Source: an uncultured Muribaculaceae bacterium | GTDB taxonomy: Bacteria > Bacillota_I > Bacilli_A > RF39 > UBA660 | Direction of reading: 5' to 3' | DNA: 17,856 nt | NCBI GenBank assembly: GCA_964492595.1 | Contig: CAZBKY010000013.1 | Coordinates: 1-17,856, forward strand | Part shown: in pieces, positions 1 to 17,856 of the stretch | How the letters are laid out: the number at the start of each line of letters is the position of its first letter | How positions within the stretch are numbered: position 1 is the stretch's first letter | Program-made: the position numbers and the translations under genes | Notes under the pieces: model-generated | Database searches by the model: none | What the model was told of the DNA's origin: nothing | The model's input: the letters and a program-made list of their open reading frames with translations, nothing else

Positions 1-68
1 CGCCATAAAATATAGATAATGATATCATAAGTTTATAGAAATATCAATCAAATATGTATTTTTTTTAG

Positions 69-446: not shown

Positions 447-464
447 AATAATCTTTCCTCAAAA

Positions 465-538: not shown

Positions 539-558
539 TTGTGTAATTATTATAACAC

Positions 559-582
559 AAAAAATATGAAAAACTTTCATAT
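559..582 (-). terminator. Candidate intrinsic terminator after nifU
   Basis: There is a perfect 8-bp inverted repeat atatgaaa/tttcatat (564-582, 3-nt loop) 2 nt after the nifU stop. It is followed on the minus strand by TTTTT (559-563). The stem is AT-rich and therefore weak. Confidence 0.4.
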
Positions 583-583
583 T

Positions 584-1000: not shown

Positions 1001-1004
1001 TTTT

Positions 1005-2177
1005 TCACTCCTTATTTTTTAATTTTTCATACAACGGGGACATATCTCTTAATTTTTGAACTATTGGAACTAAGTTATTTATTAAATAATCTATTTCTTT
1101 TTTTGTATTGTACTTTCCTATGGTTATTCTTAAAGAGCCATGAGCTATTTCATGAGGTAATCCAATTGCAAGTAATACATGAGATGGTTCAAGCGAATCT
1201 GATGTACAAGCACTCCCACTTGATGCATAAATTCCTTTGTTGTCTAAATTTAATAAAAGCCCCTCGCCTTCAATATATCTAAAAGATATATTAGCATTTC
1301 CGGGTAATCTTGAATTAATATCTCCATTTAATTTTATATTGGGTATTCTTTTATTCACTTCATCTATATAATAATCTCTCAAAGATTTAATGCGCTCATT
1401 TTTTTTCTCCATCTCTTCGTAAACAATTTCTATGGCTTTCCCCATGCCTACTATTGATGGAACATTTTCAGTTCCAGCTCTTTTACCTTTTTCCTGATGT
1501 CCTCCATTAATTAATTTTTTAAATCTTACACCTTTTTTAACATATAACGCCCCAATACCTTTAGGACCATAGAATTTATGGGCTGATAAAGATAAACTGT
1601 CTATATTCAATTCCTTTACATCTATTTTTATATTTCCAATTGCCTGTACTGCATCAGTATGAAAAAATAGATTGTGTTTTTTAGCAATTTCTGCAATTTC
1701 TTTAATCGGCTCAATAGTACCTATTTCATTATTTGCATACATAATACTTATCAAAATCGTATTTTCTTTTATTGAACTTTCTAATTCTGATAAATTAATT
1801 ATTCCAGTTTCATCTACACTTATATAAGTAACTTCAAAACCTTCATTCTCTAATTCCTTGCAAGTTTCAAGTACTGCAGGGTGTTCTATTTTTGATGTTA
1901 TAATATGATTTCCTTTATTTTTATAAGCATAAGCAATCCCCTTTATTGCAGTATTATCACTTTCAGTTCCTCCTGATGTAAAATATATTTCCGAGGGCTC
2001 AGCATTAATACTTTTAGCTACCTGTTCTCTAGCTTTTTCTATAGATCCTCTAGTATTTCTTCCTAATTTATATATAGAAGATGCATTACCATATTCATCT
2101 GTTAAATAAGGCATCATTGCTTCTAAAACTCTTTTATCTAATTTAGTAGTGGCTGCGTTATCTAAGTAAATTTCCAT
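1005..2177 (-). CDS. nifS: Cysteine desulfurase (NifS/IscS class, PLP-dependent)
   Basis: It has the PLP-lysine motif SAHKFYGPKG and the active-site loop SSGSACTS. I place the start at the ATG at 2175-2177 (MEIYLDNAATT), which is preceded by GGGAGGAA. The track ORF extension to 2243 begins at a TTG and looks spurious. The stop is TGA. Confidence 0.9.
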   Translation of the reverse strand: MEIYLDNAATTKLDKRVLEAMMPYLTDEYGNASSIYKLGRNTRGSIEKAREQVAKSINAEPSEIYFTSGGTESDNTAIKGIAYAYKNKGNHIITSKIEHPAVLETCKELENEGFEVTYISVDETGIINLSELESSIKENTILISIMYANNEIGTIEPIKEIAEIAKKHNLFFHTDAVQAIGNIKIDVKELNIDSLSLSAHKFYGPKGIGALYVKKGVRFKKLINGGHQEKGKRAGTENVPSIVGMGKAIEIVYEEMEKKNERIKSLRDYYIDEVNKRIPNIKLNGDINSRLPGNANISFRYIEGEGLLLNLDNKGIYASSGSACTSDSLEPSHVLLAIGLPHEIAHGSLRITIGKYNTKKEIDYLINNLVPIVQKLRDMSPLYEKLKNKE

Positions 2178-2255
2178 AAATTCCTCCCAGTAAATAAAAT
2201 TATACACTTCAATTCCTACTAAGTCAATAGGAATTAAAAGCAAAAAATAGATACA

Positions 2256-2651
2256 TTATTTAATTAAATCTTCTAAAGTTTTACTATCCACATAATCTTC
2301 AATAACTTTATCTAACCCCTCCCAAAACACATATGACTTACATCCACCTTTTTTATCACAAAATCCATCAGAAATGCATTCAAGAGGCGCAAGAGTGCCT
2401 TCAGTAGCTCTTAAAATATCTCCTATTTTATATTCATCGGGTTTTTTAGAAAGCATATACCCACCAGTATTTCCCCTGGCAGTTTTTAAATATCCAGCTT
2501 TATTTAATTTAGAAATTATTTGCTCTGAATATTTACTGGATATACCTTGCCTTTTAGATATTTCAGTTAAAGAAACATAATTTTCTTTAGCATTTAAAGA
2601 CAAGTCAATCATAATTTTTAGGGCATATCGCCCCCTTGTGGATATTCTCAT
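2256..2651 (-). CDS. iscR: Rrf2-family transcriptional regulator, IscR-like
   Basis: It has an N-terminal winged-helix region (MRISTRGRYALKIMIDL...) and C-X5-C-X5-C cluster ligands (CISDGFCDKKGGC). It lies directly upstream of nifS-nifU. Confidence 0.8.
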   Translation of the reverse strand: MRISTRGRYALKIMIDLSLNAKENYVSLTEISKRQGISSKYSEQIISKLNKAGYLKTARGNTGGYMLSKKPDEYKIGDILRATEGTLAPLECISDGFCDKKGGCKSYVFWEGLDKVIEDYVDSKTLEDLIK

Positions 2652-2680
2652 AATATCTCCTTTTACTTAATAATTTATTA

Positions 2681-3376
2681 TTATCTTCCAAACCTTCTAT
2701 TTCGTTTATTGTAAACCTTAATAGCCCTATCAAACTCTTTCTTAGAAAAATCTGGCCAATAAACCTTAGGAAAATAAAATTCTGCATAAGCACATGTATA
2801 AAGCATAAAGTCACTTAATCTTTGTTCTCCACTAGTACGAATCATTAAATCAACATCAGGAAGATTGTTATACAAATTCTCTCTCACAATGTCTTCATTA
2901 ACTTCACTTTCCTTAATTCGTTTATTTATTAATTTTTTATATGTATCAACAATCTCTAATCTACCACTATAATTAATACATATATTTAGAATACCGTTTT
3001 TATTATCTTTCGTTTCACTTATCATTTTATCAATACTTTTTAATACTTTTAAAGGAAGATTTTCTCTGCTTCCAGATATTACTATTTTAATATTATTTTT
3101 AACTATCTTTTTCATTTTAGAAGAAAACATATTTGTAAATAATTTCATTAAATGATTTACTTCTTCTTTAGATCTTTTAAAATTTTCTGTAGAAAAAGCA
3201 TATAAACTTAATACATTAACTCCTTTACTAAAGGCATACTCCACTATTTCTTCAACTCTTTTGAGTCCAAATGTATGTCCTTCCATTCTTGTAAGTCCTT
3301 TAGATAAAGCCCATCTTCCATTACCATCTAATATTATCGCAATATGATTAGGAATATCTAAATTTTTCTGATTCAT
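2681..3376 (-). CDS. uppS: Isoprenyl transferase (undecaprenyl-diphosphate synthase)
   Basis: It has the canonical HIAIILDGNGRWA motif and the C-terminal RRFG. The length (231 aa) is typical. Confidence 0.9.
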   Translation of the reverse strand: MNQKNLDIPNHIAIILDGNGRWALSKGLTRMEGHTFGLKRVEEIVEYAFSKGVNVLSLYAFSTENFKRSKEEVNHLMKLFTNMFSSKMKKIVKNNIKIVISGSRENLPLKVLKSIDKMISETKDNKNGILNICINYSGRLEIVDTYKKLINKRIKESEVNEDIVRENLYNNLPDVDLMIRTSGEQRLSDFMLYTCAYAEFYFPKVYWPDFSKKEFDRAIKVYNKRNRRFGR

Positions 3377-3569
3377 AAATACCTCTTTTCCATATTATAG
3401 CACATGTATAGTATGGAGTATAAAATTTTTAAAAATAAACTTAATCTTTAAGTTTTTATTATTAATGTAAAAAATAATTGGTTAATATAGCTTAATGAAT
3501 TCAAAAGGATCAATGTCTATCATATGTTAAAATCACTATGGATACTCAATTGACTTTTACGACAACTTA

Positions 3570-3599
3570 TTGCGAAAATCATCATGGAAATGTTATAAT
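3570..3599 (+). promoter_or_regulatory. Candidate sigma-70-type promoter for the small membrane-protein ORF
   Basis: TTGCGA (3570-3575), an 18-nt spacer, then TGT-TATAAT (extended -10, 3594-3599), about 90 nt upstream of the ATG at 3691. Chance matches are common in AT-rich DNA. Confidence 0.3.
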
Positions 3600-3690
3600 A
3601 TTTATAGAGTTTAGTTCAAAAATATTTATGTTTGTTTTATTATAATTTATTGAAAAGTTTAAAAATTTTTGATTTGAAAGGAGATTTATC

Positions 3691-3894
3691 ATGAAACAAG
3701 AAAATTACACTCCAATTAAAATATTATCATTTTTATTCCCTGTTATCGGAGTAATATTTTATTTTATTGAAAGTGGAAAAAATCCTAAAAAAGCAAAAGC
3801 GATTTTAGGAGGTTTAAAGATATTATTTATATTAATAATAGTTATTATTTTTATAATAATTTCAGTAATGATACAAAGAAGTTCCACATACTAA
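3691..3894 (+). CDS. Small two-TM membrane protein, function unknown
   Basis: The 67-aa protein has two hydrophobic segments separated by a basic loop (GKNPKKAKA). There is a good RBS (AAAGGAGA) 7 nt upstream. This is the only convincing plus-strand gene. Confidence 0.55.
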   Translation: MKQENYTPIKILSFLFPVIGVIFYFIESGKNPKKAKAILGGLKILFILIIVIIFIIISVMIQRSSTY

Positions 3895-4313
3895 AATAAA
3901 ATTAAAGAAATAAAAGATTTAAATTGAAAGATTTTGCCCTACATTTATTACTATTTTACTCTTAAGTAAAATATTATTCTTTTGCTATTATTTCCGATTT
4001 TGTTATTAATCAACTCTAGCACGTATATTGTCGTTAGATTCACATATTCTAAATGCAACCTGCTCTGTTTCATAGAATGTATATAATGCAGAACAAGTTT
4101 CTTCAAAATCATTTTACTTTATTAGTGTTTTCGTTTGCTTTTTAAGCCTAGCTCTTATTTATACCCTTTACTTATAGATAGTTAGCCCTTTGAGGAGTGT
4201 CATAAAAAATGCTGAAAATGATATTTGATAATGCTAATTTGTTATAGTTTATAATATTAATAAAACAAAAATCTTGAAAATACTGAACTTCCAAGACTTT
4301 TTTAAATCAAAAA

Positions 4314-4390
4314 TGGCGTTCTCGATCAGAGTCGAACTGATGACCTATCCCTTAGGAGGGGATTGCTCTATCCATCTGAGCTACGAGAAC
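4314..4390 (-). tRNA. tRNA-Arg (anticodon CCU), 77 nt with encoded CCA
   Basis: The reverse complement is GTTCTCG-TA-GCTC-AGATGGATA-GAGC-A-ATCCC-CTCCTAA-GGGAT-AGGTC-ATCAG-TTCGACT-CTGAT-CGAGAAC-G-CCA. The cloverleaf is clean and has a canonical TTCGA T-loop. Confidence 0.9.
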
Positions 4391-4454
4391 AAAAAACATA
4401 GTACTTTCTCATAAAACCCTTAGATTATATCACTTTTCCTTAGAAAAATCTAAT

Positions 4455-4820
4455 TTATATCCATCTTGGAATGTATAAATTTCTTGTATAATATTCCAAA
4501 TATTTATCATAAGCCTCTATTATCTTTTGAGCAATAAATAAAAGTACATTATCTATTCTAGAACTTATTTTTAAATTAGATATAGTTCCAATTAATTCTT
4601 TTTTAAATTCTCCATCTTCAAAATACTTAATAATAGAATCTGCCATTTTATTAATTATACAAATATCTTCTTTTTTATTAACATCAATACTAAAAACAAA
4701 TTCCTGAAATATTTGAATCAGTTTTATTGAAACAACTTCGCTATCTAAGAAATCTTGATTTATAATATTATAATAATTAGGACAATATTTTAATATTTCC
4801 TTATTTTGCAGTACACCCAT
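4455..4820 (-). CDS. Hypothetical protein (121 aa, acidic, predicted helical)
   Basis: The frame is open, with ATG preceded by GGGGGA, 9 nt downstream of the rseP stop. I recognise no family. Confidence 0.5.
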   Translation of the reverse strand: MGVLQNKEILKYCPNYYNIINQDFLDSEVVSIKLIQIFQEFVFSIDVNKKEDICIINKMADSIIKYFEDGEFKKELIGTISNLKISSRIDNVLLFIAQKIIEAYDKYLEYYTRNLYIPRWI

Positions 4821-4829
4821 AAAATCCCC

Positions 4830-5876
4830 CTAAAATAATTTGAATATATCATTAAATGTAATATATACAAATAATGCTACCAATAAGAAAAATCCCACTG
4901 TATTTAATATGCCTTCTAATTTTTTATTTTTCTTTTTAGTTATTTTTTGAATTATCAGAAGTAATATTCTTCCTCCATCAAATACTGGTATTGGAAGCAA
5001 GTTAATTACCCCTATATTAATACTTAGATATGCAGTTAAATATATTAGATTTTCCAATCCCGCCCATTTAATTTCATCAATAACAGTGTAAATCCCTATA
5101 GGACCACTTAAATTATCAATTGAAATTGTACCAACAAACAAATTCTTAAGTATACTTACTATTGATTTTAACATATCCCAAAAACCACCTACTGAATATT
5201 TCAAAGCATTAACAAAACCATATGTTTTGGGATATGATATTGCAAAACCAAATACTTTTTGTAATTCACCCTCTATTTCTTTAATCTGAGGAATTACAAT
5301 AAATTTAGAAATATTTCCCGATCTTTCAACAACAAAAGTGTACTCTTCTTTTTCTTCTTTGACTGATATTTCTAAAAGTACATCATCCCAAGAAGATGTT
5401 TTTACTCCATTTATAGATTTTATTATATCTCCAGTTTGTATTCCTGCGATGTTTATAGCACTGCCACCCTCAACCTCTCCAACAATAGGTTTTGTTATAG
5501 GACTTCCATAAAACAAGCCATTTATAAAAAGTAAAAATATTGTTAATAAAAAATTCAGTAATATGCCCATTATTAAAACTGAAAATATTTGTATAAAATT
5601 TTTATTTTCTAAAACCTCTTCTTTTTTTATTTTCATCTGTGGATCTTCTTCGTTAGCCATTGACACATATCCACCAATTGGAAATGCTCTTATAGAATAT
5701 GTAGTCTCATCTTTTTTACTTTTACGACTCCATAACTTTGGTCCCATCCCTATAGCAAACTCATCAACATAAACTCCATTTTTCTTTGCCATTATAAAAT
5801 GTCCGAATTCATGAATTAAGATTATTACTCCAAGCATTAATACTAAAACCAAAAATGTTATTATAAAATTTATCAT
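4830..5876 (-). CDS. rseP: RIP metalloprotease RseP/YluC (site-2 protease, M50 family, with PDZ domain)
   Basis: It has the HEFGH zinc motif in TM1, a central PDZ-like segment (GGSAINIAGIQTGDIIKSINGV), and the C-terminal NLLPIPVFDGG motif. Confidence 0.9.
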   Translation of the reverse strand: MINFIITFLVLVLMLGVIILIHEFGHFIMAKKNGVYVDEFAIGMGPKLWSRKSKKDETTYSIRAFPIGGYVSMANEEDPQMKIKKEEVLENKNFIQIFSVLIMGILLNFLLTIFLLFINGLFYGSPITKPIVGEVEGGSAINIAGIQTGDIIKSINGVKTSSWDDVLLEISVKEEKEEYTFVVERSGNISKFIVIPQIKEIEGELQKVFGFAISYPKTYGFVNALKYSVGGFWDMLKSIVSILKNLFVGTISIDNLSGPIGIYTVIDEIKWAGLENLIYLTAYLSINIGVINLLPIPVFDGGRILLLIIQKITKKKNKKLEGILNTVGFFLLVALFVYITFNDIFKLF

Positions 5877-5882
5877 ATTTAC

Positions 5883-6692
5883 CTATATAATACTTATGAT
5901 AAGACAGAACGTTAATATTACAAATAATATACTGTCTAACCTATCAAGTATTCCTCCATGCCCTGGCATTATTTTGCCAAAATCTTTTATTTCGTATTGC
6001 CTTTTAATAAAACTAAAAAATAGATCTCCTAGTGCAGACATTATAGAAATAAACATCATAACTAAAATTAATAAAATTATACTCCCTGTATAATCAAAAG
6101 TAGTGATGTATATATATGTTGTAATGAATGTTCCAAATAAAAGTCCACCAATAAAACCTTCTACAGATTTATTAGGGGATATTGTAGGGCACATTTTATG
6201 CTTACCTATTAAAATTCCAACAATATACGCAAAAGTATCAGTAGAGATTGTAATTAATAAAATAAATATTAAATAGTATACATTATATTCCCTCATCATC
6301 ATAAGGGCACTGAAACCTAAAACTAAAAATATATTGAATCCAGAGAAAAATATTGCGTCTTCAATACTATATTTTTTATTATCATGATAAAATATCAAAG
6401 GTAAAAGCAGCAATAAAGTATTCAAAATCAAATATTTATATGGCATATTTAATATAAATTCATTATTATTTATATTTACTATCATCATTAAAAGAAAATT
6501 AGCTACTGTTATAATTTTAATTAATAATGGAACTTTTTTATCCTTTGATTTTGCTTTAATTAATTCCATAACCCCAATAACTCCCAGAATTATTACACCA
6601 ATTTTATAAAAATATCCACCAATAATAATCAAAGGTATTACTATTAAAAGTGCAACCAGAGCACTTATTATTCTCTGTTTCATATGAATCAC
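5883..6692 (-). CDS. cdsA: Phosphatidate cytidylyltransferase
   Basis: It is a polytopic membrane protein with the CdsA signature SFIKRQYEIKDFGKIMPGHGGILDRLDS. The start is either GTG at 6692 or ATG at 6683. Confidence 0.9.
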   Translation of the reverse strand: MIHMKQRIISALVALLIVIPLIIIGGYFYKIGVIILGVIGVMELIKAKSKDKKVPLLIKIITVANFLLMMIVNINNNEFILNMPYKYLILNTLLLLLPLIFYHDNKKYSIEDAIFFSGFNIFLVLGFSALMMMREYNVYYLIFILLITISTDTFAYIVGILIGKHKMCPTISPNKSVEGFIGGLLFGTFITTYIYITTFDYTGSIILLILVMMFISIMSALGDLFFSFIKRQYEIKDFGKIMPGHGGILDRLDSILFVILTFCLIISII

Positions 6693-6740
6693 TATCTTTC
6701 TACTCCAAATTATAACATAAAACTCCTATTTTATTCAACA

Positions 6741-7796
6741 TTATTTTAAAACATTTAAACTTATTAAATCTTTTCTATCAATTTTATTATACATTTTTAA
6801 AATAAAATTGTAACTATTTGCATGTTTAAAATGAGCTAAAAAACTATTCCATTCTAAAATCATTTTATTTTCATTCAACTTATTAAAAGAATTTAACTTA
6901 TTCCATAAATTTATTCTTTTTTTCATTTGAATTTTAGCTCTTTTTCTCAATAGTCTATGTGTCTCATATATTATATATCCACAAAAATTAATTCCTGATT
7001 TGTTAGGATAATAATTACTTTTGTTATTAAGCTCTAAATTCAAATTTTTATTTAAAAATTCTTCAATTATTTTTTTAAATCTTTTAGCATCATTTTTACT
7101 ATTTACAAGCAAAATAAAATCATCCATATATCTAACATAATATTTAACCTTTAATTTCTCTTTTATAAAATGATCTAAAATATCTAAATATATATTGGCA
7201 AAATATTGACTGGTATAATTTCCAATTGGTATACCAGTATCTTCACTGTCAAATATAAAAATTTCAGTTAAATGTAATATTTTTTTATCTGTAATAGCCT
7301 TTTTTAAAATATTAAATAATATATCTTTATCAATACTATAAAAAAAATTCTTTATATCACATTTTAAAATATAATATTTTTCATTTTTTCTTTTCATTAT
7401 TCTCATATATTTTTGTGCTTTATCCACAGCATAATGAGTACCTCTTTTTTCTATACAGGCACATGTATTACTTATAAATCTTTTAACAAAAAATGGTTTT
7501 ATAAATTCATAGATATACCACTGCTGAATGACCCTGTCTACATAAGGTAAAGATTTAATAACCCTCTTTTTGGGTTCATATACTGTAAAAGTTTTATATT
7601 TTCCAATTGAATATTTTTCATTTTTAAGTTTATTAATTATATTCCATAAATTTGTTTCTAAATCCATATTGAATTTTAATACATCCCTTTTATTTTTCTT
7701 GTTTTTTATAGATCTTTCATGAGCTTTTAACATTTTTTCAAAAGTTAAATTTTCATAAAACATATTTTTCATTGTTTTAGACATGAGTTTATCCAT
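6741..7796 (-). CDS. DGR-type reverse transcriptase
   Basis: RT motifs are present: RVIKSLPYVDRVIQQ, the DGR-diagnostic IPIGNYTSQYFANIYL ([I/L]GxxxSQ rather than the group II/retron QGxxxSP), and the catalytic YMDDFILL. The length (351 aa) fits. It is adjacent to avd and a TR/VR pair. The start is uncertain (in-frame ATGs at 7796, 7784, 7772 and 7763), and it overlaps the avd 3' end. Confidence 0.9.
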   Translation of the reverse strand: MDKLMSKTMKNMFYENLTFEKMLKAHERSIKNKKNKRDVLKFNMDLETNLWNIINKLKNEKYSIGKYKTFTVYEPKKRVIKSLPYVDRVIQQWYIYEFIKPFFVKRFISNTCACIEKRGTHYAVDKAQKYMRIMKRKNEKYYILKCDIKNFFYSIDKDILFNILKKAITDKKILHLTEIFIFDSEDTGIPIGNYTSQYFANIYLDILDHFIKEKLKVKYYVRYMDDFILLVNSKNDAKRFKKIIEEFLNKNLNLELNNKSNYYPNKSGINFCGYIIYETHRLLRKRAKIQMKKRINLWNKLNSFNKLNENKMILEWNSFLAHFKHANSYNFILKMYNKIDRKDLISLNVLK

Positions 7797-8125
7797 CCAC
7801 CTAATAAATTACATATATTAGTTATTTTTTTGCTCCATGAAGCATAATTTTTAATGCTAATATATTTTTTCTTATATGAAATTCTTATTAATATTTTTAA
7901 CATTTTCAAATTGACATCTAATTCTCCTAAAATATTTAACCTTACTTTTTTATCTCTAACTTTTTGAGCTTTTATTATTAATTTCATTCCATCATATGTA
8001 TTATTTTTTATTTGCACACATATATTTTTTCTTTCTATTTTGGGATATTTAATCAAAATATTTTCTGTATAATATATAAGCTCTAAATATTGCTTATAAA
8101 TTAATAAATCTTCTAAATCACTCAT
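7769..8125 (-). CDS. avd: Avd-like accessory variability determinant (small basic four-helix-bundle protein)
   Basis: The 118-aa, Lys/Arg-rich, predicted all-helical protein (LIYKQYLELIYYTENILIKYPKIERKNI...) sits immediately 5' of the RT, as in other DGRs. AAGGAG is the RBS. Its start overlaps the upstream gene's stop (ATGAGTGA). Confidence 0.75.
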   Translation of the reverse strand: MSDLEDLLIYKQYLELIYYTENILIKYPKIERKNICVQIKNNTYDGMKLIIKAQKVRDKKVRLNILGELDVNLKMLKILIRISYKKKYISIKNYASWSKKITNICNLLGGWINSCLKQ

Positions 8126-8486
8126 TAATTATCTCCTTTAATTCACCCAATACTCTAAGGGCCTCTATTGGGGTAAGATAATTAATATCTATTTTTTTTA
8201 ATTTCATTATTATTTTATCTGTTGGTTTTATTTCATTACATTCATCTATTATTTTAATATTTAATTTTAAATTATCAAATATTGAAATATATTTTTCTTT
8301 TGAGTTAATTGGAAAACCGCATTTAACTATATCTTTATTTAAATTTATTAATTTTAAAGTTGTTATTTTATTAATTTTAATTGCATCTTCATCTAAAAAT
8401 ATATAAAAATTACCACTTTTAAATAAATATAATGCCTCCTTATTTTCTTTTTTTAATTCTAAATACTTATTATATAATTTACTCAC
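8118..8486 (-). CDS. Mini-MutS-like protein (MutS domain I plus the MutS C-terminal helix motif); DGR accessory 'MSL'
   Basis: LYNKYLELKKENKEALYLFKSGNFYIFLDEDAIKINKITTLKL...KCGFPINSKEKYISIFDNLKLNIKIIDE aligns by eye with MutS domain I (QQYLxLKxxxPxxLLFFRxGDFYExFxxDA...xAGxPxHxxxxYxxKLxxxGxxVAICEQ). The C-terminal KKIDINYLTPIEALRVLGELKEI resembles the MutS ...LDxxxLTPxxALxxLxxLK motif. It uses a GTG start at 8486 with AAGGAG 8 nt upstream. Confidence 0.7.
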   Translation of the reverse strand: MSKLYNKYLELKKENKEALYLFKSGNFYIFLDEDAIKINKITTLKLINLNKDIVKCGFPINSKEKYISIFDNLKLNIKIIDECNEIKPTDKIIMKLKKIDINYLTPIEALRVLGELKEIINE

Positions 8487-8734
8487 TTTCTTACTCCTTT
8501 TTAATATTTAAAAAAGCAGTATTAACAAACGAACCATAAATAGTTCATTTAATTACTACTGCCTTGCGTAAAGTTTCATTTTCATCATTTTACTACTCAC
8601 ATAACTTCACTATCTATTTTTTTGTTCTTATTAAAGAACAGGAATTAAACTTCTACGATAAACATTACTTTATAATATCCTTAAATATTATAATTTGAAT
8701 GAAGAATATTATATTCTTATATATAGTAGTCTTA

Positions 8735-8868
8735 AACACAACCGACCGAAACGAAATGTTGCTGTTGGCACTACCGTTGTTGTTGTTCAAATTGAAGCCA
8801 CCCGCACCCACACCGTTGCTATAGTTACCACCTCGGTTGAACCACGGATTGGACGCATTTACAAAATA
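8735..8868 (-). repeat. DGR template repeat, copy 1 (TR1), 134 nt
   Basis: It aligns without gaps to 9056..9189. All 16 mismatches are T on the plus strand (A on the minus/coding strand) in the TR versus C/G/A in the VR. Read in the VR frame, the TR encodes YFVNASNPWFNRGGNYSNGVGAGGFNLNNNNGSANSNISFRSVV, with 12 AAY codons and, by my count, 32 adenines. It lies outside any ORF with a start codon. Confidence 0.92.
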
Positions 8869-8928
8869 TCTTTTACAGCTTAATCCCTATCTATTTAACA
8901 CCGAAGTGTATAGACCTTTTTAATTTTT

Positions 8929-8962
8929 ATACGAGTCCCCAAAAAAGTGTGGGGACTCGTAT
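8929..8962 (-). other. GC-rich 13-bp stem-loop between VR1 and TR1
   Basis: atacgagtcccca-[8 nt]-tggggactcgtat is a perfect stem. It is not followed by a U-tract on the minus (sense) strand. It is duplicated at 12717..12750. Confidence 0.6.
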
Positions 8963-9030
8963 GTTTTCACTTCTTTATTTTTATATGCTATTGTAATTCT
9001 ATGTACTTTTTTCCCTGATTTTAGAGTAAT

Positions 9031-9050
9031 ATTAGGCATAAATGCCTAAT
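9031..9050 (-). promoter_or_regulatory. Perfect palindrome/hairpin immediately 3' of VR1, overlapping the target stop codon (candidate DGR homing hairpin/cruciform)
   Basis: attaggcat-aa-atgcctaat is a 9+9-nt inverted repeat that starts 5 nt beyond the end of VR/TR homology. The TAG stop (9046-9048) lies inside it. It is absent downstream of the TR. It is duplicated at 12819..12838. Confidence 0.55.
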
Positions 9051-10992
9051 AAGTCAACACAACCGACCGAAACGAAACGCTGCCGCTGGCACTACCGTTG
9101 CTGTAGTACAAACTGAAGCCACCCGCACCCACACCGCGGCTATAGAAACCACCTCGGTAGAACCACGGAGCGGACGCACTTACAAAATAATTGAAATCTT
9201 TGTACCACGAATTTGTTTCTCCCAGAGCCTCTCCTAAATAACTTGTTTTACTTTGCCATCCTGATGAAGTATATAATTTGTAATATTTAGTGTTTGGATA
9301 ATCTAATCCAGTTATATTACTTGTTATACCTGAATCACATCCTGTATAACTTGGATTACCATATAATCCTTTGAATCCACTATCATATATATTGCATAAT
9401 CCTGAATATTTATCATTTGTGGCATTAGTATATACGCTCATTTGATATTCGTATGCTCCTCCAGACATATCAAATATACCCGTTATATTTCCTGTTGTGC
9501 TCTGGGGATATGATGAAGCTGCTCCATATGTTATTTCACAGCTTGAAGTAGCTGCCAGATTATCAGCACTTGCTCCACATCCTGTTTTATAACCCGAATT
9601 ATTGTTTATTCTTATTTCTGTGTTTATTCCATATACCGAGTGTGATAGGTAGGCTATTGCTCCCCATTCCGCATTTGTACTCATTTTACTTTCTGCCCTT
9701 AACCCGTATGCTGCATTTGATGAGAATTTTTGTGATGTAGCAAATTCTGTTGATACATTTTGACTTTTCCATGAAGTTATATTTGGTTTTACTGTTGGAT
9801 TTGCTGTTCCTACATTTGCGGCTGTTCCCTGTGTTGTTTCAAATTTTCCAACCCATATTCCATTTACTTCTCTTCCTCCATATGTAAATGCAGGATGGGT
9901 TAACTCACTTCCATTTGTTGTACCACTGCTTTTTGCTGTAACTGAATTTTCAAATGTTATTTCTATGCTCCTTGGACAATTTGCCGTACAGTTTGGGGTT
10001 GTCCATGTACCAGAGTTTGCTTCACATGTTGTTTGTGAATAATATGATGCATTTGAGCATCCTCCTGTATATGTTGAAGCAGTACCCGCTACATTCCATA
10101 ATGTGTATCTATATCTTGGTATCCATACTAAATATGCCAATATATCAGCTTCACTTACTGTTACATTATAGTTTGTTTGATAATATGCTCTACTATTTGT
10201 TCCGCTTTCTTTTACCAACACAACATTTGCCCATGACCCTGATGCATAACTATACCATGTACTATTTGGATTTGCTGTTGTTACTGTTCCGTTATTTGCT
10301 ATTGTTACTGGTATCATTCCTTCACTTATTCTTGGATATGCTCCATTTAATATACTCTCTTTATATAGGTTTGTTGTATATGATTTCCAACTTGATGTCT
10401 CCTCATTCCATGTTCTTACTCCCTCACCCTGTGCTATATCCACTTGCAATACCCCACTAAATACTTTTCCCTGTACTGCATTTTGATCTTTATGTATTTC
10501 TTTTAGTTCTATCTTAAAAGTATATGTATGTTTATCTTTTCCATTTAATATTCCATTATCACTTAATACATTGTTTCCTGTTTTTATTGGCACTGTTACA
10601 TCTGTCAAATTTATTATTGTTCCTCCATTTGTACTTGTACCACTTAGACTATACACAAACGCATCTTCACTTAGTGGAGTTATTTCATTTGTTGTTACAT
10701 TCAAAAATATTGCATATGATATTTGATCTTGGGCTGCTTCTGCTGCATTTTCTATTGTAAATGTTTTTGTTATACTCCATCCAGGGTATACTTTTGTTAC
10801 ATTTATTTCACTTCCATCTAAAAACACTATATTTCCTAAATTAACTGTTGTCACTATTACACTCGATGCTGTATCATTGCCTGTTACATTTATACTGAAA
10901 TATGCCACACTTACTGCAAAAAGTGCAGATAGTAACGCCGCTATCAACAATATTGTCATCAAACTTGAATGTCCTCTTTGCTTAATTTTCAT
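9046..10992 (-). CDS. DGR target protein, copy 1: secreted protein with a TasA/camelysin-like (SipW-type) N-terminal signal and beta-sandwich region and a C-terminal C-type-lectin/FGE-like variable domain
   Basis: The N-terminus MKIKQRGHSSLMTILLIAALLSALFAVSVAYFS... has the AYFS motif typical of SipW-cognate signals, followed by a TasA-like segment (VTKVYPGWSITKTFTIEN). The C-terminus has FGE/CLec-like motifs (MSTNAEWGAIAYLS; PWFYRGGFYSRGVGAGGFSLYYSN...SFRSVV). The VR occupies the last ~45 codons. Confidence 0.85.
   Translation of the reverse strand: MKIKQRGHSSLMTILLIAALLSALFAVSVAYFSINVTGNDTASSVIVTTVNLGNIVFLDGSEINVTKVYPGWSITKTFTIENAAEAAQDQISYAIFLNVTTNEITPLSEDAFVYSLSGTSTNGGTIINLTDVTVPIKTGNNVLSDNGILNGKDKHTYTFKIELKEIHKDQNAVQGKVFSGVLQVDIAQGEGVRTWNEETSSWKSYTTNLYKESILNGAYPRISEGMIPVTIANNGTVTTANPNSTWYSYASGSWANVVLVKESGTNSRAYYQTNYNVTVSEADILAYLVWIPRYRYTLWNVAGTASTYTGGCSNASYYSQTTCEANSGTWTTPNCTANCPRSIEITFENSVTAKSSGTTNGSELTHPAFTYGGREVNGIWVGKFETTQGTAANVGTANPTVKPNITSWKSQNVSTEFATSQKFSSNAAYGLRAESKMSTNAEWGAIAYLSHSVYGINTEIRINNNSGYKTGCGASADNLAATSSCEITYGAASSYPQSTTGNITGIFDMSGGAYEYQMSVYTNATNDKYSGLCNIYDSGFKGLYGNPSYTGCDSGITSNITGLDYPNTKYYKLYTSSGWQSKTSYLGEALGETNSWYKDFNYFVSASAPWFYRGGFYSRGVGAGGFSLYYSNGSASGSVSFRSVVLTY
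9056..9189 (-). repeat. DGR variable repeat, copy 1 (VR1), 134 nt
   Basis: See TR1. It encodes YFVSASAPWFYRGGFYSRGVGAGGFSLYYSNGSASGSVSFRSVV. The 3'-terminal 22 nt on the coding strand (TTTCGTTTCGGTCGGTTGTGTT) contain no A, are identical to the TR, and resemble an IMH-like anchor. Confidence 0.92.
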
Positions 10993-11017
10993 AATATCCT
11001 TCTACTTTTATACCTAA

Positions 11018-11046
11018 ATACTACCATTTTTTGACATTTACTTCAA
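11018..11046 (-). promoter_or_regulatory. Candidate promoter for the target gene (copy 1; the equivalent is at 14806..14834)
   Basis: On the minus strand: TTGAAG, 17 nt, TAGTAT preceded by TG, ending ~25 nt upstream of the ATG (RBS GAAGGA). Specificity is low in AT-rich DNA. Confidence 0.3.
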
Positions 11047-11140
11047 GTAAATATTTAAGACTTGTAAGAATATATGATTTTTTTTGTAAGAATTTCATTA
11101 ATTCAAAAAAACGATAAAATTTATCATTATTTTTTCGACA

Positions 11141-12327
11141 TTATTTTAAAATCTCTATTTTATTTAATACCAATTGATATTTATTCAATCTTCTTTCAAC
11201 CTTGCAATAAGCATTTATAACTATCATTTTCCTTAATGAGTTATATATCTCTTTATAATAAATTGGGAATACTACTCCATCTATACATCCATATTCATCA
11301 CTTAGTTTTAAAAATGCCATTTTATCATTATTTTTAGTTTTTATTTCTTTAATACTCTCAATTAATAAAATCATTCTTACATTCTTATCAAAATATTTAC
11401 TTATATTTAATATATTTATATCTCTTTTATATTTTGTAACAGGATGATTAGAAAAATAAAATCCTAAGAGTTCACTTTCACTCTCTAATAAATATGAATC
11501 ATCATATTCATCAAATAAGATAATTTCAGGTATTATTACATTATAATCACCAAGTTCCTGACATAATAAAGAATAATTTATTATTTCTTCTAAATTTTCT
11601 ATTAATGTTTTTTTATTATAATTAAATTTATCGAAAGCTCCTATCAATACCAAAGATTCCAATACTTTTTTATTAACTGCATTATTATAACACCTTACAG
11701 AAAAATCTAAAAAATCTTTAAAAATTTCATTATTCCTTTCCTTTAAAATCCTTTTTATTGCAATATCTCCTACATTTTTAACAATACCAAGAGGCAAAAT
11801 GATTTTATTGTTTTTATTGTAATATATATCTGCACTTTCATTTATATCTATCTCACCGAAATTTAAACCAAGTATTTTTGACTCATCTATATACTCTTTT
11901 GTCTTATTTCCCCTACCAATTTCCTTATTTAACAGATTAATCATAAATATATCTTTATAATTTGCCTTTAAATAGGCCATCTGATAACCAACCATAGCGT
12001 AAGCAACTGAATGAGATTTATTAAATCCATAGTTTGCGAATTTAATTATCAGATTATAAACTTCATTAATATCATTTTTATTAAATCCAAGTTTTAAACT
12101 TCTTTTTTCAAAATTAGTCCTTTCTTTTAATAATACTACTTCATCTTTACTTTTAATTGCTGATCTTATGATGTCAGCTTCAGCATACGTATAACCCGCC
12201 ATTACATTTAATATTTCAAGGAGCTGTTCTTGATAGATGATTATGCCTAAAGTATCTTTTAAAATACCTTCTAATTCTTTAACAGGATAAGTAACACTCT
12301 CTTTTCCTTCTCTTCTTCTTAGATAAG
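11141..12327 (-). pseudogene. 5'-truncated duplicate of dnaE (the C-terminal ~395 codons, created by the tandem duplication)
   Basis: It is identical to 14929..16115. The frame is closed by a TAA only a few codons upstream of the junction at 12327/12328. The first in-frame ATG is at 12202 (353 aa), and I see no obvious RBS there. Confidence 0.85.
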
Positions 12328-12522
12328 ATAGTTCATTTAATTACTACTGCCTTGCGTAAAGTTTCATTTTCATCATTTTACTACTCACATAACTTCACTA
12401 TCTATTTTTTTGTTCTTATTAAAGAACAGGAATTAAACTTCTACGATAAACATTACTTTATAATATCCTTAAATATTATAATTTGAATGAAGAATATTAT
12501 ATTCTTATATATAGTAGTCTTA

Positions 12523-12656
12523 AACACAACCGACCGAAACGAAATGTTGCTGTTGGCACTACCGTTGTTGTTGTTCAAATTGAAGCCACCCGCACCCACA
12601 CCGTTGCTATAGTTACCACCTCGGTTGAACCACGGATTGGACGCATTTACAAAATA
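12523..12656 (-). repeat. DGR template repeat, copy 2 (TR2)
   Basis: It is identical to TR1 (offset 3,788). It is followed by only 195 nt of the native TR-downstream spacer before the dnaE fragment begins. Confidence 0.9.
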
Positions 12657-12833
12657 TCTTTTACAGCTTAATCCCTATCTATTTAACACCGAAGTGTATA
12701 GACCTTTTTAATTTTTATACGAGTCCCCAAAAAAGTGTGGGGACTCGTATGTTTTCACTTCTTTATTTTTATATGCTATTGTAATTCTATGTACTTTTTT
12801 CCCTGATTTTAGAGTAATATTAGGCATAAATGC

Positions 12834-14780
12834 CTAATAAGTCAACACAACCGACCGAAACGAAACGCTGCCGCTGGCACTACCGTTGCTGTAGTACAAA
12901 CTGAAGCCACCCGCACCCACACCGCGGCTATAGAAACCACCTCGGTAGAACCACGGAGCGGACGCACTTACAAAATAATTGAAATCTTTGTACCACGAAT
13001 TTGTTTCTCCCAGAGCCTCTCCTAAATAACTTGTTTTACTTTGCCATCCTGATGAAGTATATAATTTGTAATATTTAGTGTTTGGATAATCTAATCCAGT
13101 TATATTACTTGTTATACCTGAATCACATCCTGTATAACTTGGATTACCATATAATCCTTTGAATCCACTATCATATATATTGCATAATCCTGAATATTTA
13201 TCATTTGTGGCATTAGTATATACGCTCATTTGATATTCGTATGCTCCTCCAGACATATCAAATATACCCGTTATATTTCCTGTTGTGCTCTGGGGATATG
13301 ATGAAGCTGCTCCATATGTTATTTCACAGCTTGAAGTAGCTGCCAGATTATCAGCACTTGCTCCACATCCTGTTTTATAACCCGAATTATTGTTTATTCT
13401 TATTTCTGTGTTTATTCCATATACCGAGTGTGATAGGTAGGCTATTGCTCCCCATTCCGCATTTGTACTCATTTTACTTTCTGCCCTTAACCCGTATGCT
13501 GCATTTGATGAGAATTTTTGTGATGTAGCAAATTCTGTTGATACATTTTGACTTTTCCATGAAGTTATATTTGGTTTTACTGTTGGATTTGCTGTTCCTA
13601 CATTTGCGGCTGTTCCCTGTGTTGTTTCAAATTTTCCAACCCATATTCCATTTACTTCTCTTCCTCCATATGTAAATGCAGGATGGGTTAACTCACTTCC
13701 ATTTGTTGTACCACTGCTTTTTGCTGTAACTGAATTTTCAAATGTTATTTCTATGCTCCTTGGACAATTTGCCGTACAGTTTGGGGTTGTCCATGTACCA
13801 GAGTTTGCTTCACATGTTGTTTGTGAATAATATGATGCATTTGAGCATCCTCCTGTATATGTTGAAGCAGTACCCGCTACATTCCATAATGTGTATCTAT
13901 ATCTTGGTATCCATACTAAATATGCCAATATATCAGCTTCACTTACTGTTACATTATAGTTTGTTTGATAATATGCTCTACTATTTGTTCCGCTTTCTTT
14001 TACCAACACAACATTTGCCCATGACCCTGATGCATAACTATACCATGTACTATTTGGATTTGCTGTTGTTACTGTTCCGTTATTTGCTATTGTTACTGGT
14101 ATCATTCCTTCACTTATTCTTGGATATGCTCCATTTAATATACTCTCTTTATATAGGTTTGTTGTATATGATTTCCAACTTGATGTCTCCTCATTCCATG
14201 TTCTTACTCCCTCACCCTGTGCTATATCCACTTGCAATACCCCACTAAATACTTTTCCCTGTACTGCATTTTGATCTTTATGTATTTCTTTTAGTTCTAT
14301 CTTAAAAGTATATGTATGTTTATCTTTTCCATTTAATATTCCATTATCACTTAATACATTGTTTCCTGTTTTTATTGGCACTGTTACATCTGTCAAATTT
14401 ATTATTGTTCCTCCATTTGTACTTGTACCACTTAGACTATACACAAACGCATCTTCACTTAGTGGAGTTATTTCATTTGTTGTTACATTCAAAAATATTG
14501 CATATGATATTTGATCTTGGGCTGCTTCTGCTGCATTTTCTATTGTAAATGTTTTTGTTATACTCCATCCAGGGTATACTTTTGTTACATTTATTTCACT
14601 TCCATCTAAAAACACTATATTTCCTAAATTAACTGTTGTCACTATTACACTCGATGCTGTATCATTGCCTGTTACATTTATACTGAAATATGCCACACTT
14701 ACTGCAAAAAGTGCAGATAGTAACGCCGCTATCAACAATATTGTCATCAAACTTGAATGTCCTCTTTGCTTAATTTTCAT
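12834..14780 (-). CDS. DGR target protein, copy 2 (identical 648-aa product)
   Basis: Its translation is identical to 9046..10992. Confidence 0.85.
   Translation of the reverse strand: MKIKQRGHSSLMTILLIAALLSALFAVSVAYFSINVTGNDTASSVIVTTVNLGNIVFLDGSEINVTKVYPGWSITKTFTIENAAEAAQDQISYAIFLNVTTNEITPLSEDAFVYSLSGTSTNGGTIINLTDVTVPIKTGNNVLSDNGILNGKDKHTYTFKIELKEIHKDQNAVQGKVFSGVLQVDIAQGEGVRTWNEETSSWKSYTTNLYKESILNGAYPRISEGMIPVTIANNGTVTTANPNSTWYSYASGSWANVVLVKESGTNSRAYYQTNYNVTVSEADILAYLVWIPRYRYTLWNVAGTASTYTGGCSNASYYSQTTCEANSGTWTTPNCTANCPRSIEITFENSVTAKSSGTTNGSELTHPAFTYGGREVNGIWVGKFETTQGTAANVGTANPTVKPNITSWKSQNVSTEFATSQKFSSNAAYGLRAESKMSTNAEWGAIAYLSHSVYGINTEIRINNNSGYKTGCGASADNLAATSSCEITYGAASSYPQSTTGNITGIFDMSGGAYEYQMSVYTNATNDKYSGLCNIYDSGFKGLYGNPSYTGCDSGITSNITGLDYPNTKYYKLYTSSGWQSKTSYLGEALGETNSWYKDFNYFVSASAPWFYRGGFYSRGVGAGGFSLYYSNGSASGSVSFRSVVLTY
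12844..12977 (-). repeat. DGR variable repeat, copy 2 (VR2)
   Basis: It is base-for-base identical to VR1, including all 16 substituted positions. Confidence 0.9.
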
Positions 14781-14928
14781 AATATCCTTCTACTTTTATA
14801 CCTAAATACTACCATTTTTTGACATTTACTTCAAGTAAATATTTAAGACTTGTAAGAATATATGATTTTTTTTGTAAGAATTTCATTAATTCAAAAAAAC
14901 GATAAAATTTATCATTATTTTTTCGACA

Positions 14929-17832
14929 TTATTTTAAAATCTCTATTTTATTTAATACCAATTGATATTTATTCAATCTTCTTTCAACCTTGCAATAAGC
15001 ATTTATAACTATCATTTTCCTTAATGAGTTATATATCTCTTTATAATAAATTGGGAATACTACTCCATCTATACATCCATATTCATCACTTAGTTTTAAA
15101 AATGCCATTTTATCATTATTTTTAGTTTTTATTTCTTTAATACTCTCAATTAATAAAATCATTCTTACATTCTTATCAAAATATTTACTTATATTTAATA
15201 TATTTATATCTCTTTTATATTTTGTAACAGGATGATTAGAAAAATAAAATCCTAAGAGTTCACTTTCACTCTCTAATAAATATGAATCATCATATTCATC
15301 AAATAAGATAATTTCAGGTATTATTACATTATAATCACCAAGTTCCTGACATAATAAAGAATAATTTATTATTTCTTCTAAATTTTCTATTAATGTTTTT
15401 TTATTATAATTAAATTTATCGAAAGCTCCTATCAATACCAAAGATTCCAATACTTTTTTATTAACTGCATTATTATAACACCTTACAGAAAAATCTAAAA
15501 AATCTTTAAAAATTTCATTATTCCTTTCCTTTAAAATCCTTTTTATTGCAATATCTCCTACATTTTTAACAATACCAAGAGGCAAAATGATTTTATTGTT
15601 TTTATTGTAATATATATCTGCACTTTCATTTATATCTATCTCACCGAAATTTAAACCAAGTATTTTTGACTCATCTATATACTCTTTTGTCTTATTTCCC
15701 CTACCAATTTCCTTATTTAACAGATTAATCATAAATATATCTTTATAATTTGCCTTTAAATAGGCCATCTGATAACCAACCATAGCGTAAGCAACTGAAT
15801 GAGATTTATTAAATCCATAGTTTGCGAATTTAATTATCAGATTATAAACTTCATTAATATCATTTTTATTAAATCCAAGTTTTAAACTTCTTTTTTCAAA
15901 ATTAGTCCTTTCTTTTAATAATACTACTTCATCTTTACTTTTAATTGCTGATCTTATGATGTCAGCTTCAGCATACGTATAACCCGCCATTACATTTAAT
16001 ATTTCAAGGAGCTGTTCTTGATAGATGATTATGCCTAAAGTATCTTTTAAAATACCTTCTAATTCTTTAACAGGATAAGTAACACTCTCTTTTCCTTCTC
16101 TTCTTCTTAGATAAGTTGGAATCATATTCATGGGTCCGGGTCTAAACATTGCAATTACTAAAACCAAGTCATCAAAATTCTTAACATTCATTTTACGTAA
16201 TAGATTTCTGATGCCTGAACTTTCATACTGAAATATTCCAGTAGTTTCTGCTTTATTAAACATCTCAATTGTTTTTGAATCATCCAAAGGGATATCATTT
16301 AGATTAATAAATTCTTTCGTATCTTCTTTTATTTTATTCAAAACTTCATCAATTATAGAAAGATTTCTGATACTAAGTAGATCTATTTTTAATATACCCA
16401 ACTCTTCAATATGTTTCTTGTCATAGCCAACTAGTATATTATTTCCGCTTTTAAATAATGGAACTTTATTAGTTAGAGGTTCACTATCTATAACAATTCC
16501 TGCAGCATGCACACTAGCATGCTTTTTTAATCCCTCCAATTCTTCACTTATATCCAGAAGTTTAACATACTCTTTATTAAATGAAATTAGAGATTTATAT
16601 TTTGAATTGCTCTCTAAATCATATAAACTATCTTTATCTTTTAATAAGCTAAGTAAAGTATCCATTTTCTTTACACTTATATTTAAAACTCTGCCAACAT
16701 CTCTTAGAACTTGTTTTGGAAGTAATGTACTGAAAGTAATAATATTGGCAACTTTATCATAACCATATTTAACTCTGACATATTCTATTAATTCTTCTCT
16801 TTTAATATCGCTTATATCTATATCTATATCGGGCATACTTAAGCGATTAGGATTTAAAAATCTTTCAAAAAGCAAATTATATTTTAATGGGTCTATATCT
16901 ATTATTCCAAGACTATAGCTTACTAAACTTCCCACGGCACTTCCTCTTCCGGGCCCGACATAGATATTATTTTTCTTGGCATACAAAACGATATCATAAA
17001 CTATTAGAAAATAATCTACATAACCAGTACTTTCAATTATTTCTAGCTCATAGAGTAATCTTTTTTTATATTTGTCTGGAACTTTATCATTTAATCTTTT
17101 TTCAAGTCCTCTCTTACACAAACTTTTTAAATATTCTATTGAATTAGATTTATATTTAGGTAATTTAAATGAAAATTTAGGGAGTTCTAAATTAATTTGT
17201 TTAATAAATTCTTCATTAGTTTTTATGTCAAAATCATTTATTTTTAAATTAAAACAATTGTTTTCAAATTTATATTCATTTATATCATCTATAGTTTTAC
17301 CATCTTTAATCATATATAAATATTTTAAATATTCATAATCAGATTCATTAAAGCATAAAACTTCATTCATATATAAAATATTATCCGTTATAATCAATGC
17401 TTCTTTTTTCTCCAGTTCATTTTTATAACTTAGGTACACATTATCAAATATTCTGGATAACAATTCATAGTTGCTGTTACTTTTATTTATTAAAACACAT
17501 ATTAAATCGTTACTGTTTTTTTCAATGTAATCAAAATTTAATATATTAATATTTTTTTCCGACACTATTTTGCATAAATTCTGGTAACCTTTAAAATTTT
17601 TAGCATATAATATAAATCGTATGTTTTCTACTTCTATATCTATACCGACAATAACTTTAATATTATTCTTTTTACATAATTCATAAAACTCTAAAAACGA
17701 GAATAAATTGCTATCAGTAACACCTAATACATTAATATTATTTTGTAATGCATAATTAATTAAATCATCTATTTTTATAATACTAGATAATAATTCATAA
17801 TTGGTTTTTATATTTAATGGCATTATACTCAT
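14929..17832 (-). CDS. dnaE: DNA polymerase III alpha subunit, DnaE type (967 aa)
   Basis: The layout is an N-terminal PHP-like region, then the Pol III alpha core (GPGRGSAVGSLVSYSLGI, MPDIDIDI, FNKSHSVAYAMVGYQMAYLK), then a C-terminal OB fold. The start is either ATG at 17832 or the Met at codon 4. Confidence 0.9.
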   Translation of the reverse strand: MSIMPLNIKTNYELLSSIIKIDDLINYALQNNINVLGVTDSNLFSFLEFYELCKKNNIKVIVGIDIEVENIRFILYAKNFKGYQNLCKIVSEKNINILNFDYIEKNSNDLICVLINKSNSNYELLSRIFDNVYLSYKNELEKKEALIITDNILYMNEVLCFNESDYEYLKYLYMIKDGKTIDDINEYKFENNCFNLKINDFDIKTNEEFIKQINLELPKFSFKLPKYKSNSIEYLKSLCKRGLEKRLNDKVPDKYKKRLLYELEIIESTGYVDYFLIVYDIVLYAKKNNIYVGPGRGSAVGSLVSYSLGIIDIDPLKYNLLFERFLNPNRLSMPDIDIDISDIKREELIEYVRVKYGYDKVANIITFSTLLPKQVLRDVGRVLNISVKKMDTLLSLLKDKDSLYDLESNSKYKSLISFNKEYVKLLDISEELEGLKKHASVHAAGIVIDSEPLTNKVPLFKSGNNILVGYDKKHIEELGILKIDLLSIRNLSIIDEVLNKIKEDTKEFINLNDIPLDDSKTIEMFNKAETTGIFQYESSGIRNLLRKMNVKNFDDLVLVIAMFRPGPMNMIPTYLRRREGKESVTYPVKELEGILKDTLGIIIYQEQLLEILNVMAGYTYAEADIIRSAIKSKDEVVLLKERTNFEKRSLKLGFNKNDINEVYNLIIKFANYGFNKSHSVAYAMVGYQMAYLKANYKDIFMINLLNKEIGRGNKTKEYIDESKILGLNFGEIDINESADIYYNKNNKIILPLGIVKNVGDIAIKRILKERNNEIFKDFLDFSVRCYNNAVNKKVLESLVLIGAFDKFNYNKKTLIENLEEIINYSLLCQELGDYNVIIPEIILFDEYDDSYLLESESELLGFYFSNHPVTKYKRDINILNISKYFDKNVRMILLIESIKEIKTKNNDKMAFLKLSDEYGCIDGVVFPIYYKEIYNSLRKMIVINAYCKVERRLNKYQLVLNKIEILK

Positions 17833-17856
17833 AATACATTCTCTTTCTATAAATAA

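Follow-up and report, generated by a model that had tools for sequence, protein, structure and literature searches.

A perfect 3.8-kb tandem repeat of template, target, and dnaE sequence in a diversity-generating retroelement of a gut Bacilli contig: duplication or assembly artefact?

Has a diversity-generating retroelement (DGR) of a gut bacterium gained a second copy of both its template and its target, or does an assembled sequence print one copy twice? The question is raised by DNA from an uncultured Muribaculaceae bacterium (GTDB lineage Bacteria; Bacillota_I; Bacilli_A; RF39; UBA660), NCBI GenBank assembly GCA_964492595.1, contig CAZBKY010000013.1, positions 1 to 17,856 of the forward strand; this whole stretch of 17,856 nt is termed the window. 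Here, a DGR that includes a MutS-like (MSL) accessory gene is situated between dnaE and cdsA, and a 3,788-nt segment comprising the 3′ part of dnaE, the target gene with its variable region (VR), and the template repeat (TR) is present as two tandem copies. That a real tandem duplication or amplification exists in at least a sizeable part of the population has, in our estimation, about an even chance, and the novel junction between the copies is slightly likelier to be present in the sampled DNA than to be missing from it.

The repeat is composed of two adjacent head-to-tail copies with a single novel junction between them. By direct string comparison, window 8540-12327 is the same as 12328-16115 over 3,788 nt with 0 mismatches, and the run of identity at an offset of 3,788 spans 8540 to 12327. 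The length of this run equals the period, which means that there are exactly 2 (2.000) copies and that the junction has zero microhomology. A 3.8-kb exact repeat is not explicable by chance. The window contains 0 Ns. One NCBI contig of 17,858 bp (the window plus 2 nt) is the catalogued source of both the target protein (648 aa) and a 353-aa fragment of dnaE, and the repeat therefore belongs to the public record and not to the preparation of the window. In each unit, 394 codons from the 3′ end of dnaE are followed by a 148-nt intergenic region, the target gene (648 aa) and the VR within it, the TR, and 195 nt of the spacer that comes after the TR. The genes of the window all lie on the minus strand, and those within the unit are co-directional. 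Read along that strand, the order is dnaE, target copy 2 with VR2, TR2 with 195 nt of spacer, the junction, the dnaE remnant, target copy 1 with VR1, TR1 with its spacer, and then the MSL gene, avd, and the gene for the reverse transcriptase (RT), which are present once each and lie outside the unit. The features that make up the repeat are as follows.

8540..12327, 3,788 nt: repeat unit copy 1
12328..16115, 3,788 nt: repeat unit copy 2
12327/12328: novel junction, a blunt join of CTTAGATAAG to ATAGTTCATT
14929..17832, minus strand: full-length dnaE, 967 aa, with codons 573-967 inside copy 2
11141..12327, minus strand: truncated dnaE, codon 573 (second base) through the stop
9046..10992, minus strand: copy 1 of the DGR target gene (648 aa), VR at the C terminus
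12834..14780, minus strand: DGR target gene copy 2, identical to copy 1
9056..9189, minus strand: VR copy 1, 134 nt, with 16 mismatches to the TR
12844..12977, minus strand: VR copy 2, identical to VR copy 1
8735..8868, minus strand: TR copy 1, with the complete spacer and then the MSL-avd-RT genes downstream
12523..12656, minus strand: TR copy 2, followed by 195 nt of spacer and then the dnaE fragment
8540..8734 and, in copy 2, 12328-12522, minus strand: the part of the conserved structured spacer that lies inside the unit
8516..8562, minus strand: terminator-like hairpin ending the spacer RNA, 17 pairs followed by a T run, with an apical loop at 8535-8542

This anatomy bears out the structural description given in a first-pass annotation of the window, which had proposed identical units at 8540..12327 and 12328..16115, a doubled TR, a doubled full-length target gene that has its upstream region in both copies, and a truncated dnaE wedged between two complete TR-target modules. 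The same annotation had offered three readings of the duplication (very recent, under selection, or an artefact), and that choice stands, little narrowed. Its use of the perfect identity as a pointer toward recency needs correction. When a de Bruijn-graph assembler traverses a loop, a single graph edge supplies both copies, which then cannot differ. Because such an assembler prints both copies from one edge, the identity of the copies, the VRs included, is no independent evidence of recency. The copy number of 2 and the perfect identity may thus be only the rendering of an assembler and are not to be taken as measured; as the printed identity is possibly by construction, the identity of the VRs is unusable for dating the event.

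The two ends of the unit share no sequence. Position 8539 is A and 12327 is G, whereas 12328 is A and 16116 is T, giving a junction homology of 0 nt, as the first-pass annotation had proposed from inspection. All that self-BLAST adds is ATAA, a 4-nt match offset by one base and a trivial one in DNA of 27% GC. The longest word common to the breakpoint neighborhoods is 8 nt (random mean, 7.7), and local alignments between them score at chance level. Beyond the displaced ATAA, self-BLAST, word search, and local alignment thus give no microhomology or template-switch signature at the breakpoints, and the joined ends have neither a k-mer-length repeat in common nor an N gap between them. Both the anatomy of the repeat and the missing homology are read directly from the sequence. 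With no k-mer-length overlap and no Ns at the junction, a graph assembler would print the junction only if reads contain it. Naive scaffold joins normally leave Ns.

One unit end lies 54 nt upstream of the MSL start, a GTG at 8486, and the other is internal to dnaE codon 573, after 1,717 nt of the gene; the first-pass annotation had likewise given 54 nt and an internal dnaE codon, and had placed the junction midway along the TR-downstream spacer. It is located instead at the end of this spacer. The left breakpoint, 8539/8540, falls within the apical loop of the 17-pair terminator-like hairpin, a location shared by 1.7% of random window positions when apical loops of stem-loops that long are considered. 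The right breakpoint at codon 573 has no structure (z ~ -0.1). Hairpins are known hotspots of replication fork stalling and breakage. A breakpoint at a hairpin apex fits fork stalling or hairpin cleavage and is not expected of a purely in silico concatenation.

Two other origins of the repeat were considered and rejected. Cross-talk between TR and VR does not account for a false loop of this size; the TR-VR spacing is 321 nt and not 3,788, and the breakpoints lie outside both TR and VR. Duplication of the 3′ end of dnaE by a mobile element at an att site does not fit two copies that abut directly, nor the lack of an integrase and of any element between them.

The spacer that carries the left breakpoint is conserved. 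Alignment of the region from TR to MSL in the window and 11 relatives delineates an RNA-like spacer of ~200-250 nt that has three or four helices, with compensatory changes at 20 of 35 predicted pairs among 8 sequences (alignments A1 and A2: window 8487-8734, L004 9083-9310, L045, L072, L048, L041, L030, and L055). The spacer contains the conserved blocks GACTA..TATA, TTTAAGGA, TAGAAnTCTAATTCC, and AGTAATAAAATGATGAAAAT, and its terminal hairpin and T run lie just upstream of the MSL ribosome-binding site. The terminal hairpin is conserved in the relatives with a shorter loop and is longer in the window (17 pairs). No Rfam family matches the spacer, the Rfam and tRNA scans of the window return two tRNAs alone, both outside the unit, and a promoter scan gives a signal at background level. 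The spacer probably corresponds to the Sp region in the RNA of the Bordetella phage DGR. TR copy 2 keeps all of the conserved spacer blocks and has lost the 3′ arm of the terminal hairpin together with the T run. With this terminator lost, a TR2 transcript would be predicted to run on into the dnaE remnant and target copy 1.

The cassette into which the repeat is set is a textbook DGR of a known type, the MSL-containing "Architecture D" (MSL/Avd/RT), and contains the following additional features.

6741..7796, minus strand: DGR reverse transcriptase, 351 aa, single copy; PF00078 (RVT_1), E = 3.6e-19
7769..8125, minus strand: avd, single copy; PF22296, E = 1.5e-19
8118..8486, minus strand: MSL accessory gene, 122 aa, MutS domain I only, single copy, outside the unit
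9030..9051 and, in copy 2, 12818-12839, minus strand: 9-bp hairpin 4 nt after the VR end, at the position of a DGR target-site hairpin; z = -3.3
8928..8963 and, in copy 2, 12716-12751, no strand assigned: GC-rich 13-14-bp hairpin between VR and TR; z = -5.0

The RT translation holds the motifs IGNYTSQ and YMDD, in agreement with the I/LGxxxSQ and YxDD motifs of DGR-clade RTs. The Avd protein scores 70.9 bits against PF22296 (cut-off 40), which identifies it as the accessory protein, and 69.5 bits against NF033474, below the cut-off of 80. The MSL protein matches PF01624 (E = 3.5e-11), TIGR01070, and MutS chains in the PDB, and its gene is located between TR and avd, as in many related loci and as the MSL type implies. 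In the 134-nt TR/VR pair, 16 of 16 mismatches are at TR adenines, all at codon positions 1-2, such that 16 of the 32 TR adenines differ, and the VR ends 7 nt before the stop codon of the target gene; the pair thus has the adenine-only pattern of DGRs. The last 22 nt are identical in TR and VR and free of A. This A-free 3′ end and the hairpin downstream of it correspond to the predicted initiation of mutagenic homing (IMH)-like element and target site of DGRs. The DGR is intact, with Avd, MSL, and an RT bearing IGNYTSQ and YMDD, and its past activity is clear from the TR-VR differences, all 16 of which fall at TR adenines.

The MSL proteins show a pattern of their own. In alignment A3, which covers window 8118-8486 and the MSL genes of L004, L005, L007, L015, L024, L045, L048, L031, L054, and L083, the G-x-F-Y core of the MutS mismatch-binding motif, with its conserved Phe, is kept in 11 of 11 proteins, and the Glu of Phe-X-Glu is replaced by Ile, Leu, or Val in all 11, as judged by comparison with the E. 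coli MutS N terminus. This pattern suggests that MSL may bind DNA or heteroduplexes without canonical mismatch discrimination.

Related loci provide a background against which the repeat can be viewed. GTDB species representatives were scanned with the RT, yielding 80 loci with 48-68% RT identity; nearly all are from uncultured gut Bacilli MAGs (metagenome-assembled genomes), and most carry MSL between TR and avd. A TR/VR pair was callable in 39 of these loci. In about 15 of these 39, no more than 300 nt separate the VR from the contig end (L005, L011, L015, L016, L017, L019, L027, L030, L031, L047, L055, L068, L070, L077, and L082), which fits VR heterogeneity or TR/VR similarity breaking short-read assemblies. 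In L083, two 864-nt stretches are 95.8% identical and one of them includes the called VR, such that duplication around the target/VR region is a plausible route in these related DGRs. Pairs of 100%-identical repeats of 108-172 nt are also observed in L026 (7464-7635/9598-9769), L035 (62-169/581-688), and L080 (6850-6962/8008-8120); these could be TR/VR pairs without diversification or further assembly collapses. The dnaE gene is adjacent in 0 of the 80 loci, and dnaE relatives in metagenomes are at most 50% identical, none of them with a DGR downstream. The searched collections contain neither an independent assembly nor a sister genome of the source organism, the closest RT being 68% and the closest dnaE 50% identical.

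If the junction is real, the repeat would represent a young tandem duplication, or an amplification in a sizeable part of the population, within an MSL-type DGR between dnaE and cdsA of a low-GC gut Bacilli MAG. The join would be homology-independent (illegitimate) and would connect the hairpin tip at the spacer end with a site in dnaE codon 573 that has no remarkable feature and lies on the same strand, 3.8 kb behind the tip. From the G richness of the minus strand, the replication fork would be expected to travel in the direction of the genes. The fork may stall or break at the hairpin apex, and the broken end may then be re-joined to the sister duplex 3.8 kb upstream. The outcome would be a further full target gene, accompanied by an upstream region, a VR, and a target-site hairpin of its own; a second TR with the conserved spacer and without a terminator; and a promoterless, start-less C-terminal fragment of dnaE. 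The single-copy MSL, Avd, and RT would serve both modules in trans. We infer the presence of the junction in the sample, the manner in which it formed, and any effect on expression.

A number of observations weigh against such a duplication. A perfect 3.8-kb tandem repeat is unstable in RecA-proficient cells, and a high frequency would for this reason need a recent origin or selection, neither of which is shown. The two VRs are identical despite a DGR that has clearly been active. The coincidence of a breakpoint with a hairpin apex has p ~0.03 when either of the two breakpoints is counted and was noticed post hoc. Among the 39 callable relatives, two TRs are clear in none (a single TR in 38, an ambiguous call in L062), and none of the 80 related loci contains a kb-scale perfect tandem duplication. 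All eight window proteins found in a collection of ~15 billion proteins are singleton clusters at 90% identity, and the junction 39-mer has 0 matches in metagenome_contigs. Related short-read MAG contigs usually break at VR/TR, making it surprising that the window contig passes two VRs, two TRs, and a 3.8-kb exact repeat. Zero microhomology is also the product of a random artificial join, roughly half of which are blunt, this being the commonest outcome. Misassembly has been suspected before in tandem DGR targets: for a Stenotrophomonas DGR with eight tandem targets, the authors suspected an assembly error because VRs were shared (PMC5758913).

Several of these observations are what would be expected if the organism has one copy and the second is an artefact of assembly, post-assembly processing, or the library, a reading that falls short of an even chance and is nevertheless a serious contender. 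A chimeric long read could have been accepted at low coverage, contigs 1-12327 and 8540-end could have been concatenated instead of merged, or a low-level chimeric loop edge could have been traversed. Exact copy identity, an integer copy number, and a structure unique among the relatives examined would all follow, and the resolution of a 3.8-kb exact repeat here is suspicious. Chimeric loops that join a sequence end to itself are recognized in RNA-seq de Bruijn-graph assemblies (PMC6736328). The details of the junction fit such routes less well: the k-mer-length repeat able to make a false graph edge is missing, as are Ns, and a 3,788-nt overlap within a second contig of 5.5 kb is one that overlap-aware tools of any kind would collapse. 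The breakpoint at the hairpin apex, unexpected for in silico concatenation, is compatible with a polymerase or library chimera.

The junction could also be real and the layout not, if a minority variant, either a subpopulation with higher-order amplification or an excised 3,788-bp circle, accompanied a single-copy chromosome and the resulting loop were rendered as two copies. A chromosome plus a circle gives the same assembly graph as a tandem duplication, and exactly 2 copies is the minimal traversal of such a loop. This arrangement is improbable: genes for replication proteins or recombinases are missing from the unit, whose whole content is the 3′ part of dnaE, the target gene, and the TR; its ends bear no att-like repeats; and no excision mechanism is evident. 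Retro-duplication, in which the DGR RT would have copied a read-through transcript that began inside dnaE and ended at the spacer terminator, with the cDNA then inserted beside its source, is effectively refuted. One end of the unit does lie in the terminal hairpin of the TR-spacer RNA, and the genes of the unit are co-directional, but the boundary is in the hairpin loop and not at a transcript 3′ end past the T run. DGR cDNAs, as known from the Bordetella phage DGR, are short and primed inside the spacer, which likewise counts against it. In addition, there are zero A-to-N differences in 3,788 nt, compared with the 16 of 32 TR adenines changed in the VR; because an adenine-mutagenic RT would not copy 3,788 nt error-free, this route is excluded in practice.

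The most far-reaching form of a real tandem duplication, in which it is present in most cells and kept by selection, is unlikely, though it retains a chance worth stating. In this form, the repeat would mark the birth of a second complete DGR module (TR, VR, and target) that arose from a break at the terminator-hairpin apex and is served in trans by one MSL-Avd-RT set, with the new terminator-less TR transcriptionally fused to the dnaE remnant and the downstream target copy.

Comparison with known systems places both the cassette and the proposed event. MSL-containing DGRs were described as Architecture D (Wu et al. 2018, NAR 46:11; PMC5758913). Similar to that architecture, the window has target(VR)-TR-MSL-avd-RT on one strand, a small MSL with MutS domain I only, and adenine-specific substitutions, and the same cassette is found in the 80 gut Bacilli MAG loci. 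The window differs in that the TR, the target, and part of a neighboring housekeeping gene are present twice, identically. Multi-target loci constitute ~15% of DGRs (PMC5758913), so the gain of extra targets is common in DGR evolution, which favors a real junction. The window resembles these loci in having tandem target genes served by one RT; in known multi-target DGRs, however, the targets are diverged and share one common TR, whereas in the window the copies are 100% identical, the TR is doubled too, and a dnaE fragment is carried along. The chimeric-loop or concatemer artefacts described above (PMC6736328) share with the window exact identity, an integer copy number, and a structure unique to one assembly. 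The window differs from them in having no k-mer-length junction repeat and no Ns, and in that the repeat is internal and not at the contig ends.

Tandem duplications of a comparable kind are not restricted to DGRs. RecA-independent "short-junction" tandem duplications and amplifications have reportedly been found in enteric bacteria by Roth, Andersson, and colleagues and verified by genetics or reads. As in those cases, the repeat in the window is kb-scale and head-to-tail, has little or no junction homology, and would be expected to be unstable, persisting only if it is selected for or recent; unlike them, it is represented by a consensus sequence. If real, the event is an ordinary illegitimate tandem duplication, the unusual side of which is that the TR was duplicated too, together with part of an essential gene.

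The two forms of dnaE differ in domain content. Full-length dnaE contains the Pfam domains PHP, DNA_pol3_alpha, finger, HHH_6, and OB, of which only HHH_6 and OB are left in the truncated form. The spacer contributes an in-frame stop at 12343-12341, ahead of the remnant, and no ORF (open reading frame) of at least 20 aa crosses the junction. The first start codon of the remnant, M615 at 12202, is without a Shine-Dalgarno sequence. From these features, the remnant is probably a silent pseudogene.

Relatives of the target protein at 32-41% identity carry PF03781 (FGE-sulfatase/C-type-lectin-like), and a sequence search of the PDB with the target protein gives no match. The N-terminal third (residues 1-200) is unlike that of most homologues, which bear the prepilin N-methylation motif PF07963, and gives a weak sub-threshold match to camelysin/TasA-like proteins (PF12389, E = 0.013). 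The closest target homologues (P0002, P0005, and P0006) are located in genomic contexts other than that of the window. The sole full-length homologues (56-59% identity; P0002 and P0006; L001-L003 and L085) are situated between gap and pgk with no RT nearby and may represent remote paralogues or paralogues unconnected with a DGR. In both copies, a 168-aa ORF runs antisense to the target gene (9954-10460 and 13742-14248, plus strand); it is of low complexity, rich in Leu and Tyr, and most likely spurious.

Beyond the RT gene, the minus strand carries cdsA, rseP, tRNA-Arg, uppS, a gene for an Rrf2 regulator, nifS, iscU, tRNA-Thr, and a gene for a ComGC-like pilin. The gene order (2681-6692, 6741-17832) is unusual in that cdsA-rseP is upstream of uppS, compared with the common order uppS-cdsA-rseP seen in L054, and in that the place upstream of cdsA is taken by dnaE and the DGR cassette. 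The DGR appears to have been inserted between housekeeping genes, and the window contains neither an integrase gene nor phage genes. Between uppS and tRNA-Arg(CCU), ~940 nt (3377-4313) contain no ORF of at least 100 aa (the longest, on the plus strand, is 67 aa and hydrophobic) and include the GC minimum of 19%; this region may be a decayed gene or a long intergenic region.

Under either reading, the locus is a DGR of a described architecture and the event is of an ordinary type. If the repeat is an artefact, the counts of targets and TRs per DGR, the target dosage, and the dnaE pseudogenes taken from this record would mislead, and the contig would strengthen the case that metagenome assemblies are prone to error at DGR loci. 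If the duplication is real, it would show how DGR loci gain extra targets and, exceptionally, extra templates, and it would provide a dated starting point from which the divergence of two identical VRs could be followed. It would also serve as a caution that the structured ends of DGR RNAs can be fragile sites.

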